Shown: in pieces, positions 15,001 through 18,000 of the stretch | Position numbering within the stretch: the first letter of the stretch is position 1 | How the letters are laid out: each line of letters opens with the position of its first letter | From: a virus | Lineage: Duplodnaviria > Heunggongvirae > Uroviricota > Caudoviricetes | IMG/VR virus record: IMGVR_UViG_2874945390_000003 | Direction: 5' to 3' (one strand) | Length of the DNA stretch: 32,454 nt | Made by a program: the position numbers

Positions 15001-18000
15001 GGCCTGTAGTTGACGACAACACATATCCGGGGCTATATTCCTCATACGCCAGCAAAATCTGGCGTCGGGATTGAGACCCCGGATGTTTACGGAGCGATAT
15101 GAGACGCGCCCGCGTCTTTTTTCATATTGTTTGCACAGTCACATTCGCGATTTATGGTGGGCTGTGTGGGGGAGCCGAAAGGCTCGCCGGTTTCCGTACC
15201 CGGTAGTCTCAACCCTGCACAGCTCGCCACCAGATTATTGAGACCAGAAGGTGGCGATAATGACCAAATGTACGGAGTTATCGTTATGCTCACTCAAATT
15301 TCTGTCGACACTCTTCCTGCAATCACCCACAACCAGATCCCCGTTATTACAACTGAACTTCTGGCGCAGTTATACGGAACAAAAATCAAAAACATTTCTG
15401 ATAATTTTCTGAACAACACGATGCGATTCGTGGTAGGAAAGCATTACTTTAAAATTGAAAAAAACGAATTACGCGAGTTTAAGAACAGACCCGAAACAAT
15501 CGGGTTAGTTGGTAAAAATGCCCGCTCCCTCATCCTCTGGACAGAACGCGGAGCCGCACGCCACGCCAAAATGCTCGAAACCGATCAGGCGTGGGACGTG
15601 TTCGAAAAACTGGAAGACTGCTATTTCAGCCAGACTTCGAAAAGCGCAGGTCATCACGAGAAGAAAACCAGCGAGCTTTCTGCAAAAGATGCAAACAGTC
15701 TGGTATGGTTGTGGGATTATGCCAACCGCTCACAGGCATTATTCCGCGAACTGTATCCGGCGCTAAGACAAATTCAGTCTAACTATTCCGGCAGATGCCA
15801 CGACTACGGTCATGAGTTCTCGTATGTTATCGGAATGGCGAGAGACGTTTTAATCAATCACACACGAGATGTTGATATTAATGAGCCAGACGGACCAACG
15901 AATCTTTCTGCATGGGTAAGACTTAAGAACAAAGAATTACCTCCTTCACTACATCACTACTGACAGATTGCCAACGCAACGACCCAGCTTCGGCTGGGTT
16001 TTTTATTGCTGAATTTTCAATATGAGAGGACATGACAATGAACGAGCTGATAAATAGCAACGCCATCAAAATGACCAGCATTGAAATCGCTGAGTTGGTG
16101 GGTAAGCGTCATGACAATGTGAAACGTACCATCGAAACGCTGGCTAAAAATGGTGTTATCCGGCATCCTCAATTTGAGGTTTCCGAAAGAATCAATAACT
16201 TAGGGTTCAATGTTCAGTACGAGCATTACGTCTTCGAAGGCGAACAAGGTAAGCGCGACAGCATTATTGTCGTTGCCCAGTTGTCGCCGGAATTCACCGC
16301 TCGTCTTGTTGACCGTTGGCGAGAGCTTGAAGGGGCAACCGCGAAAATCCCACAAACCTTTTCTGAGGCATTGCGCCTTGCGGCCGACCTTGAAGACCAG
16401 AAGGCTGAACTGGAGAAACAGCTTGCTCTCGCAGCACCTAAAGTTGAGTTTGCCGATCGCGTTAGCGAGGCCAGCGGAATTTTGATTGGAAACTTTGCAA
16501 AGGTTGTTGGAATTGGTCCAAACAAACTGTTTGCGTGGATGCGCGATCACAAAATCCTTATTGCTTCAGGTTCCCGGCGCAATGTGCCAATGCAGGAATA
16601 TATGGATCGCGGCTATTTCACAGTGAAAGAAACAGCAGTCAACACAAATCACGGAATACAGATATCGTTCACCACAAAAATCACCGGGCGTGGCCAACAG
16701 TGGCTGACCAGAAAGCTGCTCTATAACGGAATGCTGAAAGTAACAGGGGAGGCTGCTTAATGGCTAACTTACGCAAAGAAGCGCGCGGAGGAAGACGATG
16801 GGTGATGTAAAAGAAAAAGATATCCCCGGTTTTGAGGGTATATATAAAGTAACTGAAAATGGAGACATCATTTCATGCCGTAAATCAAAAAAATTATCTC
16901 ATGGTATTAAACCAGGAGGGTATGCTTTTGTCGGTCTATATCCAGGTGGAGGGAAAAGACCATCATATAAAATGGTTCACAGAATTGTTGCAGAAGTATT
17001 TATTGATAACCCAGATGGAAAACAGGAAGTTAATCACAAGGATGGGAATAAACTTAATAATAAAGTTGAAAATCTTGAGTGGGTAACGCGAGCAGAAAAT
17101 GTGAAGCATGGGTTTGATTCTGGGTTGCTTGTTCATGGTTTTACTCATCACTTCTGCAAACTAACGCCAGAACAAGTGAAATCAATATATAAATCAAAAG
17201 GCAAATACAGAGATATAGCCAAAGAATTTGGTGTTTGTGCGCAGACAGTGTGCAACATAAAAAATAAATCAGCGTACCGACGTTTTTTGGAGGGGTTTGA
17301 TGTTTAGAAGCAAAAAAATGGCTTCAGGCAGTCAGGGATATTGAATTTTGCGTTCTTTGCGGAAGATACGGAGTTCAGGCCGCTCACAGAAATGAAGGGA
17401 AGGGGGTTGGGATTAAAGTAGATGATTGCCTTACTGCTGCGCTATGTGTTGATTGTCATTCAAGAATTGATAATGGGAGAGATATGAGCAGGGAAGAGCG
17501 AAGGGCTGAAATGGATCGGGCCATTGTGCTTACCCTTAAAAAATTGGTTAACAATGGGTGAGGTGTACTGGCAATAGCGGACACTACCATTTGTTCTTTT
17601 TTTAAGCAGCCATCTGATGATATTTTTCCCTGAAGGCTGCCGGGGAGATATTCCCCAGACGAGAGTGACGACGCTGACGATTGTAGAAAATCTCAATGTA
17701 TTCCCGTATTACTGAGATGGCTTCATCCCGGTTATTAAAACGATAGTGGCTCAGGCTCTCATTTTTCAGCGTTCCCCAGAAGCTTTCCATCGGAGCGTTG
17801 TCGTAACAGTTACCTTTACGCGACATTGATGTTTTCAGACCAAACTGCTCCTGTATGACCCGGTAATCGTATGCGCAGTACTGTGAACCTCGATCAGAGT
17901 GGTGGATTAGCCCGGCAGGTGGGCGCTGGCTCCTGAGCGCCATAAACAGGGCTTTACCTGTCAGCTCTTTTGTCATGCGCTCTCCCATGGCGTAGCCGAC

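Follow-up and report, generated by a model that had tools for sequence, protein, structure and literature searches.

Antirepressor and roi genes in the nin region

Do two adjacent regulatory genes in the nin region of a lambdoid prophage form a single antirepressor unit, or are they separate neighbours? The question is raised by positions 15286-16760 of IMG/VR virus record IMGVR_UViG_2874945390_000003, a caudoviricete sequence of 32,454 nucleotides (nt; this whole stretch is referred to as the window) that belongs to a defective lambdoid prophage of Shigella boydii, riddled with insertion sequences (IS). A preliminary description, made by reading the sequence, took the two as tandem genes with ORF6N and Rha domains that follow a terminator and feed antirepressor activity into the lysis-lysogeny switch. 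Overall, this interpretation is partly supported. The locus probably consists of two separate neighbouring units, an RNA-gated antirepressor cassette of the P1 immI/Gifsy-1 isrK-anrP type (15010-16006) and roi. The two adjacent open reading frames (ORFs) are present where they had been placed:

15286-15963, + strand: gene 1, an Ant/AnrP-type antirepressor gene of 225 amino acids (aa), with ORF6N and P22_AR_C domains
16038-16760 (alternative ATG at 16032), + strand: gene 2, roi, 240 aa (242 from 16032), with a Rha-type N-terminal and a KilAC/ANT C-terminal domain

The preliminary description was to be given up if searches with hidden Markov models (HMMs) failed to find ORF6N or Rha domains. Pfam HMMs recovered both above their cut-offs, and that ground for rejection therefore falls away. 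In gene 1, ORF6N covers residues 13-96 (E 5e-20, 72 bits; cut-off 27.8) and P22_AR_C residues 125-197 (E 2e-28), and in gene 2, Phage_pRha covers residues 14-100 (E 1e-9, 39 bits; cut-off 29.9) and ANT/KilAC residues 128-230 (E 2e-33). Both proteins were assigned to anti-repressor families in PHROGs (E 8e-77 and 7.5e-98, respectively).

Gene 1 is an orthologue of phi24B Ant (83% identity), and its product is 100% identical to the protein named 'phage antirepressor Ant [Shigella boydii]' by NCBI. Its N-terminal 120 aa (ORF6N) share 92% identity with Gifsy-1 AnrP (STM2616) and its C-terminal 104 aa share 88% identity with the C-terminus of P22 Ant, and it is thus a mosaic of an AnrP-like N-terminus and a P22 Ant-like C-terminus. 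Among homologues linked to the RNA cassette described below, the ORF6N domain is constant and the C-terminal domain is swapped. There is good support for gene 1 as an antirepressor that feeds into the choice between lysis and lysogeny.

Searches of the PDB with single sequences and with profiles returned no relative of solved structure. NCBIfam gave no matches, and PADLOC matched gene 1 only weakly, at the level of ORF6N, to the candidate system PDC-S05 (~25 bits). An AlphaFold2 model of gene 1, based on a 24-sequence alignment, had a mean predicted local distance difference test (pLDDT) score of 64, with 75-88 for the ORF6N domain alone. Some annotations give gene 1 as an ORF of 278 or 287 aa. 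This form was rejected as the main product, because the MLTQ/MATQ/MTTQ start and its Shine-Dalgarno sequence are conserved and the upstream extension is C4 RNA.

A candidate promoter, IsrK and C4 upstream of the antirepressor gene

The 240 bp upstream of gene 1 are predicted to hold a near-consensus promoter, an IsrK small RNA (sRNA) and a C4 antisense RNA, all of which had escaped the preliminary description. The elements are as follows:

15010-15039, + strand: P_isrK, candidate sigma-70 promoter (TTGACG, 18-nt spacer, TATATT)
15033-15085, + strand: c4-a1b1 motif (the a1b1 targets of C4), Rfam RF03163, 45.3 bits, just below the gathering score of 46.7
15046-15122, + strand: IsrK-like sRNA, which corresponds to the a1/b1 leader in operons of the immI type; Rfam RF01394, 70.6 bits (gathering score 50)
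15071-15077, + strand: b1, TTGAGAC, in the loop of IsrK hairpin 2
15088-15093, + strand: a1, TACGGA, in the spacer of IsrK
15101-15118, + strand: stem of the IsrK intrinsic terminator, followed by a T-run
15150-15234, + strand: C4 antisense RNA, Rfam RF01695, 75.9 bits (gathering score 45)
15193-15199, + strand: a', TCCGTAC, in the loop of C4 hairpin 2
15206-15212, + strand: b', GTCTCAA, in the C4 internal loop
15238-15277, + strand: gene 1 leader with the C4 targets
15238-15244, + strand: b2, TTGAGAC, in the gene 1 leader
15270-15276, + strand: a2, GTACGGA, overlapping the Shine-Dalgarno sequence GGAG (15274-15277) of the gene 1 start ATG 15286

In a consensus scan, the candidate P_isrK matched the consensus at 10 of 12 positions; it ends 6 nt ahead of the 5' end of IsrK, and the same -35/-10 pair is kept at the matching position in phi24B, Gifsy-1, ArgO145, PhiR12, PA28 and VT2-Sakai. 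The terminator described earlier ahead of the gene pair is real insofar as a hairpin with a T-run is found there, but it is not a plain terminator: since Rfam places IsrK at 15046-15122, the hairpin is that of the sRNA itself. In the predicted fold of IsrK, b1 is unpaired and exposed in a loop.

The C4 sequence folds with a minimum free energy of -46.7 kcal/mol (z = -4.79) into a structure equal to the Rfam consensus. Its stems are 97-100% paired, the long stem being 100% paired with seven compensatory pairs. The b' sequence is the exact 7-nt complement of both b1 and b2, while a' is the exact 7-nt complement of a2 and also matches a1.

The IsrK-C4 leader was found in 284 phage records, mostly of Shiga toxin (Stx) phages, and it also stands ahead of phi24B ant. 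Neither IsrK nor C4 is listed in the RefSeq annotation of a 96%-identical copy in Escherichia coli. Within the phage collection, the leader was matched best (92.9%) by PP818812.1; this record bears the label 'Actinobacillus phage vB_Apl-pPE4', and such a host is unexpected for a sequence of Escherichia/Shigella type.

Co-variation of the pairing sites

We compared 16 loci, namely those of the window, phi24B, YYZ-2008, Gifsy-1, ArgO145, PhiR12, PA28, VT2-Sakai, Kp4865-1, 2H10, sal3, LPM4, phiV10, Ayreon, APSE-7 and P1. The order IsrK, C4, antirepressor-type gene was found in all 16. The a and b sequences vary among the loci, and within each locus they are always complementary and located at the same positions. 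Co-variation was measured on a 14-sequence alignment, where the b1:b' helix was 94.9% paired and the b':b2 helix 90.8% paired, each with compensatory changes at five of the seven pairs. The whole structure was 93% paired, compared with 35-44% when the 3' partners were slid by 1-3 columns. Cognate a':a2 helices had a mean length of 8.3 nt versus 4.1 nt for non-cognate combinations, and the corresponding values for a':a1 were 7.1 and 3.9 nt.

A pattern scan of IMG/VR yielded 90 unique cassettes, among which 65 different a'/b' combinations occur. Cognate complementarity of at least 6 nt was seen for a2 in 93%, b2 in 99%, b1 in 97% and a1 in 78% of these cassettes, while the same length was reached by 7-14% of non-cognate pairs overall and by 7-8% for a2/b2. 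Some IMG/VR contigs carry two to three tandem C4 units, 656 bp apart (L051, 4679-5391; L052, 3667-4376; L072, 9739-11104). In L051 and L072, the two that were parsed, each C4 unit has an a'/b' type of its own and is followed by a short gene (~120 aa).

A reading frame that starts inside C4

An AUG at C4 positions 5-7, corresponding to the start of 'orf45' in Gifsy-1 and to position 15154 of the window, is invariant. The ORF that starts from it is not conserved as a protein, as it has 14-64 codons in some loci and is fused to the downstream gene in others. Among 81 cassettes (the window and IMG/VR loci L028-L147), the downstream gene is in frame with this AUG in 54; with one cassette taken per type the figure is 38/58 (binomial p = 8e-7 against 1/3, not corrected for relatedness). 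The frame of the AUG is stop-free up to the gene start in 54/81 cassettes, compared with 27 and 19 for the other two frames, and in 37/81, the window included, it runs into the gene without a stop. In the window, 15154-15963 is open in frame and would encode a 269-aa form of gene 1.

Taking the survey and this reading frame together, we would put forward as a speculative extension, which we think may well turn out wrong, that wherever lambdoid prophages, whether of Stx type or not, have an ant gene in the nin region, this one and phi24B included, the gene is gated by one of a diversified set of IsrK/C4 locks (at least 65 a'/b' combinations), giving each co-resident prophage a private, RecA-independent route to derepression, and that the C4 gene doubles as coding sequence. 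If so, the switch would include either an N-terminally extended isoform of the antirepressor or translation through C4 as an obligatory step.

roi as a probably separate neighbour

Gene 2 is identified by its sequence as Roi, with 97.1% identity to Roi of H-19B, 82% over the full length to that of HK022 and 87% to that of phi24B. Its C-terminal 165 aa are 55% identical to P1 Ant1. Of the two possible starts, ATG 16038 is better supported, with GAGAGGA 7 nt upstream and an N-terminus, MNELIN, as in HK022 Roi. Roi of HK022 is reportedly a DNA-binding protein with an IHF-dependent effect on lytic growth; it is said to bind within its own gene, beside an IHF site, and to prevent lytic growth in IHF mutants, and it is not known to have been demonstrated as an antirepressor. 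The antirepressor input that had been proposed for both genes is well supported for gene 1, with its orthology to phi24B Ant, its AnrP-like ORF6N domain and its predicted promoter and RNA switch, but not for gene 2, which is Roi.

The two genes are divided by one further element:

15981-16006 (hairpin 15981-16000), + strand: intrinsic terminator between gene 1 and gene 2, stem GACCCAGC/GCTGGGTT followed by a T-run

The fold of this terminator has a z-score of -2.8. Both phi24B and PhiR12 have the same hairpin. In APSE-7 and Gifsy-1 the first gene is also followed by an analogous hairpin, which in Gifsy-1 is the isrJ terminator.

The strongest alternative is that genes 1 and 2 work as a pair: a single transcript, continuing past a leaky terminator, would yield an antirepressor or regulator composed of two proteins. 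The pair holds both classical antirepressor C-terminal domains, that of P22 Ant in gene 1 and that of P1 Ant1 in gene 2, and the gap between the genes is 74 nt long with no recognisable promoter. The layout recurs in the distant phages phi24B, YYZ-2008, PhiR12, VT2-Sakai and APSE-7 (the last with IsrK, C4, a BRO-N gene and a Rha gene). In the IMG/VR cassettes, the second gene after C4 has a Phage_pRha domain in 11/44 and an ANT/KilAC domain in 9/44, and a Rha-type protein is itself the C4-controlled gene in 24 of 75, where ORF6N (15/75) and Bro-N (10/75) are the other types counted directly after C4. Against a functional pair stand the conserved intrinsic terminator between the genes, the roi of HK022, which lacks any IsrK or C4, the occurrence of the cassette without roi in Gifsy-1, ArgO145, LPM4, phiV10 and 2H10, and phage PA28, in which two other genes are inserted between the two. 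We therefore consider a functional pair unlikely, and regard roi as a nin gene in its own right, to which transcription extends by antitermination. The tandem interpretation put forward in the preliminary description is not borne out, given the terminator and the fact that each partner is found without the other.

Comparison with known systems

A close parallel in organization is found in Gifsy-1, where most IsrK transcripts terminate and those that read through form an isrK-orf45-anrP message that is translationally silent (Hershko-Shalev et al. 2016, PMC4825925). When provided in trans, IsrK switches on anrP translation >100-fold, which the mutant IsrK-G28A cannot do; IsrK G28 and G31 pair with C162 and C159; and AnrP raises transcription of the antQ operon and induces the prophage (PMC4825925). 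The G28/G31:C162/C159 pairs are exactly b1:b' positions. The window shares with Gifsy-1 a promoter, an IsrK with its own terminator, a C4-like RNA (STnc1160 in that work), an ORF6N-type antirepressor gene and a terminator, in that order, and its b1 and b' lie at the positions that mutation showed to pair. It differs in its a/b specificity sequences and in the C-terminal domain of the protein, which is P22_AR_C here. Whereas orf45 is a separate ORF of 45 codons in Gifsy-1, the frame from AUG 15154 here runs into gene 1 without a stop. Gifsy-1 has isrJ downstream and antQ upstream, but here no isrJ was detected downstream of gene 1 (no Rfam match at E <= 0.1), and ninE and a toxin-antitoxin pair lie upstream. 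Finally, the Gifsy-1 locus is downstream of Q, while that of the window is in the nin region and is followed by roi.

Phages P1 and P7 carry the immI operon (c4-icd-ant1/ant2; sequence X17512). In P1, C4 is said to be excised from the transcript and to block ribosome access to the gene that comes next. Each of the two phages has a/b specificities of its own, which makes them heteroimmune. The order a1b1, C4, a2b2 is the same in P1/P7 and in the window, and in both a2 coincides with the ribosome site of the gene that follows. Three hallmarks of this type of locus are present here: the C4 structure, a' and b' complementary to a2 and b2 at that ribosome site, and a1/b1 upstream. In P1, a 73-codon icd (380-601) is located between C4 and ant and overlaps the ant1 start at 598, whereas a2 in the window overlaps the Shine-Dalgarno sequence of the antirepressor gene itself, and no separate ORF that could be an icd-like leader gene coupled to ant was found between C4 and gene 1. 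A 50-codon out-of-frame ORF from ATG 15261 was considered as an icd analogue and rejected, as it overlaps gene 1 by 126 nt and has no counterpart in other loci. P1 Ant1 is a KilAC protein, while KilAC is here found in gene 2 and not in the C4-controlled gene, and the a1b1 leader of P1 scores below the IsrK threshold (35 bits).

In Stx phage phi24B (Fogg et al. 2011, PMC3064807; Smith et al. 2012, PMC3430580), genes annotated as ant and roi follow one another as they do in the window, which also shares the IsrK-C4 leader and the terminator between the genes. The a'/b' sequences of phi24B are ATGTTTCGA / GTGCTAA, compared with TCCGTAC / GTCTCAA in the window, with the targets changed to match, so that the two RNA locks should not cross-react. 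phi24B also differs in being a viable phage, as opposed to the defective prophage here, and the toxin-antitoxin pair upstream is a feature of the window. Knock-out of ant in phi24B left the activity of the late promoter pR' at 27-56% of wild type after norfloxacin, and superinfection was unaffected (Fogg et al. 2011, PMC3064807).

The Roi proteins of HK022 and H-19B have the same architecture (Rha N-terminus and KilAC) and the same position between P and Q, but in HK022 there is neither an IsrK/C4 cassette nor an ant gene beside roi. In immI of P22, where ant is under Mnt, Arc and the sar antisense RNA, an antirepressor is likewise held off by an antisense RNA. The N-terminus of P22 Ant is P22_AR_N, as compared with ORF6N here, and gene 1 does not have the combination of P22_AR_N and P22_AR_C; nor does the window have arc, mnt or a sar RNA, its C4-type RNA coming from the same strand and acting in trans or cis, in contrast to a true antisense transcript. 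The APSE phages of Hamiltonella share the series isrK, C4, first gene, Rha-family gene, and both RNAs have been annotated there and the four-part layout noted (Rouil et al. 2020, PMC7313666). The first gene of APSE is BRO-N and not ORF6N, the Rha gene has no KilAC match, and the host and the type of phage are different.

Proposed switch and its alternatives

Starting from the domains, orthology, RNA family membership, complementarity and co-variation observed above, the cassette would work as follows. Transcription would start from the near-consensus promoter at about 15046, and most transcripts would be expected to stop at the terminator at 15101-15122, releasing IsrK as a 77-nt sRNA. Read-through transcripts would carry C4 (15150-15234) together with the gene 1 message. 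In these, a' and b' of C4 would pair with a2 and b2 in the leader and mask the ribosome site, and because a2 overlaps the Shine-Dalgarno sequence, this pairing would keep gene 1 untranslated. With its copies of a1 and b1, IsrK would act as a decoy for C4; when abundant it would titrate C4 and free the ribosome site, allowing the antirepressor to be made. These RNA steps are supported by sequence and co-variation in the loci compared, and by experiment only in homologues. We infer that the switch operates in this Shigella prophage, and that the gene 1 protein would relieve cI-type repression of a lambdoid prophage, either by its own cI or by that of a co-resident prophage, without RecA cleavage. 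Having its own predicted promoter and an IsrK/C4 switch, gene 1 could be an input that is independent of pR. As roi lies behind the terminator of the cassette, it would be expressed mainly by N-antiterminated read-through from pR.

Several points weigh against this reading. The Gifsy-1 authors explain activation by translation of the leader ORF orf45, to which that of anrP is coupled, and do not hold that the Shine-Dalgarno sequence of anrP is masked directly (PMC4825925). Since the counterpart of orf45 is fused in frame to gene 1 here, the translational details may differ. AnrP and gene 1 have only the N-terminal domain in common, their C-terminal halves being unrelated, and a Foldseek search of the gene 1 model against the PDB gave no match below E = 0.5 and no hint of a binding partner. 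At the RNA level, a1 offers six Watson-Crick pairs only, and the duplex energies are modest compared with simple mononucleotide shuffles (z = -1.6 for the leader and -2.7 for IsrK), so that the argument for the switch rests on co-variation. Promoter and terminator scans were by themselves not above chance (5 terminator-like matches versus 4.7 in shuffles), and the terminators therefore rest on Rfam and conservation. Lastly, the helicase gene is split by an IS and Q, lysis and lambdoid structural genes are absent, so derepression cannot yield phage from this element.

It has also to be considered that both genes are ordinary nin genes of the delayed-early class, with N-antiterminated transcription from pR as their only source. 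They would then encode DNA-binding regulators of lytic growth, as reported for HK022 Roi, with no role in immunity, and the RNA elements would be relics. Their location between ninE and the position of Q agrees with this, as do the terminators ahead of both genes, which would be expected if they were N-dependent; Roi, too, is reportedly a DNA-binding protein. The ant knock-out of phi24B alters events after induction and not superinfection immunity (PMC3064807). Nevertheless, a'/b', a1/b1 and a2/b2 co-vary over 65 specificity types and are intact in the window, and relics would not keep such three-way complementarity. The promoter is also conserved, and Gifsy-1 AnrP induces a prophage when expressed alone (PMC4825925). 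We thus find it improbable that the genes are ordinary nin genes of this kind, and retain the RNA-gated cassette beside a separate roi as the probable reading.

The host prophage and neighbouring genes

The window comprises a lambdoid early region, in which exo/bet/gam, N, cI, cII, O, a DnaB-type helicase gene, ninB and ninE were identified. Assignment of the gene pair to the nin region, as in the preliminary description, agrees with NinB and NinE upstream and the remnant of a DUF1364-type nin gene downstream. The main landmarks are:

6978-7715: cI, S24 peptidase domain present
13712-14122: NinB, nin region, upstream of gene 1
14119-14295: NinE, nin region, upstream of gene 1
~334-1590, ~11240-12500 and ~17552-18800: IS3-family element (orfA 100 aa, orfB 272 aa), present in three copies with essentially the same sequence
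18838-19728: IS66 fragment
23896-25092: IS110 element

The second IS3-family copy interrupts the helicase gene, and the third cuts the nin region 800 bp past gene 2, so that Q and the lysis genes do not follow. No Q, lysis or lambdoid structural genes were found downstream in the window, where the IS66 fragment and myovirus baseplate genes are located instead. The latter belong to a set of myovirus-type baseplate and tail-fibre genes (19980-28968; gp41-like hub, GpV-like spike, Baseplate_J and Gp34-like fibre) that abuts the lambdoid early region across the IS elements, and the 'prophage' is a chimera of two elements.

Relatives of the 1.75-kb stretch were found in 353 phage records, most of them from phages that convert to Stx production; of 5426 complete E. 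coli genomes, 1705 also contain one. CP026836.1 shares the gene order of the window and has an identical RNA leader. A 63-nt pattern spanning the junction of gene 2 and the HNH gene had no exact match among the GTDB representative genomes. At least two assemblies share an identical set of ORFs and RNA pairing sites, all of them intact, and a copy in E. coli differs at two non-critical leader positions. In three loci from other Shigella genomes (L002-L004), an identical gene 1-gene 2 pair has an IS 128 bp upstream, and the promoter, IsrK and part of C4 are therefore lost. The toxin-antitoxin/nin side is inverted in these genomes and lies several kb off, which looks like an IS-mediated rearrangement that uncoupled ant from the RNA switch. 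That the locus is a non-functional passenger in a dead prophage, intact by recency and with no target left, would suit the IS-riddled state of the prophage, its truncation right after gene 2 and the parting of the gene pair from its RNA leader by IS insertion or inversion in these other genomes. This reading is nevertheless improbable in view of the intact ORFs and RNA pairing sites, which at least two assemblies have in identical form, and of the cI gene, which has kept its S24 peptidase domain; moreover, trans-acting antirepressors can act on other resident prophages (PMC3121763).

On the - strand upstream of the cassette and divergent from the IsrK promoter (14337-15045), a toxin gene of RelE/ParE (Gp49/HigB-like) type, with a probable extent of 14635-14964 (109 aa), and a helix-turn-helix antitoxin gene (14337-14645) were identified. 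A toxin-antitoxin pair is likewise located directly upstream of the IsrK-C4-ant cassette in phage ArgO145 (1586-2097 of locus L014). Downstream of gene 2, the region 16760-17561 holds a homing-endonuclease-like HNH gene (16798-17307; NUMOD4 and HNH_3) at a mosaic joint. It is preceded by a 16-codon stub of a DUF1364 gene, which overlaps the stop codon of gene 2, and followed by a diverged DUF1364-like C-terminal ORF (17340-17561). A search for an intron RNA around the HNH gene found none.

The two pieces of the DnaB-type replicative helicase (9616-11265 and 12485-13363) add up to ~820 aa, compared with 478 aa for the intact homologue in L002, and weak Hint and LAGLIDADG matches in the split helicase suggest an intein. 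On the - strand, a protein with an Nmad5 (nucleotide-modification-associated) domain is encoded next to N (4003-4686), and a DUF3024 protein and a 177-aa ORF without a Pfam match are located between N and cI (5876-6409 and 6599-6940), in the interval where lambda carries rexAB. The Nmad5, DUF3024 and 177-aa genes are possibly moron or defence genes. Other Rfam matches were to the lambda cIII thermoregulator element (3852-3910, - strand), CssrB, a Shigella chromosomal sRNA (30919-31098, + strand), and IS009 (31855-32058, + strand).

Implications for Stx-type phages

All components of the locus belong to described families, namely IsrK, C4 and a1b1 in Rfam, Ant/AnrP and Roi, and taken alone the window matters little, as it holds known families in a decayed Shigella prophage. 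A switch on the nin-region ant of Stx-type phages was found neither in annotation nor in the searchable literature, which mentions IsrK alongside Stx phages in passing or as a review entry. What changes is the view of ant, which is not just another nin gene read from pR, but is predicted to be served by a promoter of its own, with an antisense RNA covering its ribosome site and an sRNA acting as decoy. Because the leader is shared with phi24B ant and 284 phage records, the Gifsy-1 mechanism becomes a testable candidate for SOS-independent induction of Shiga-toxin prophages, and likewise a candidate for insulation or cross-talk between co-resident prophages.

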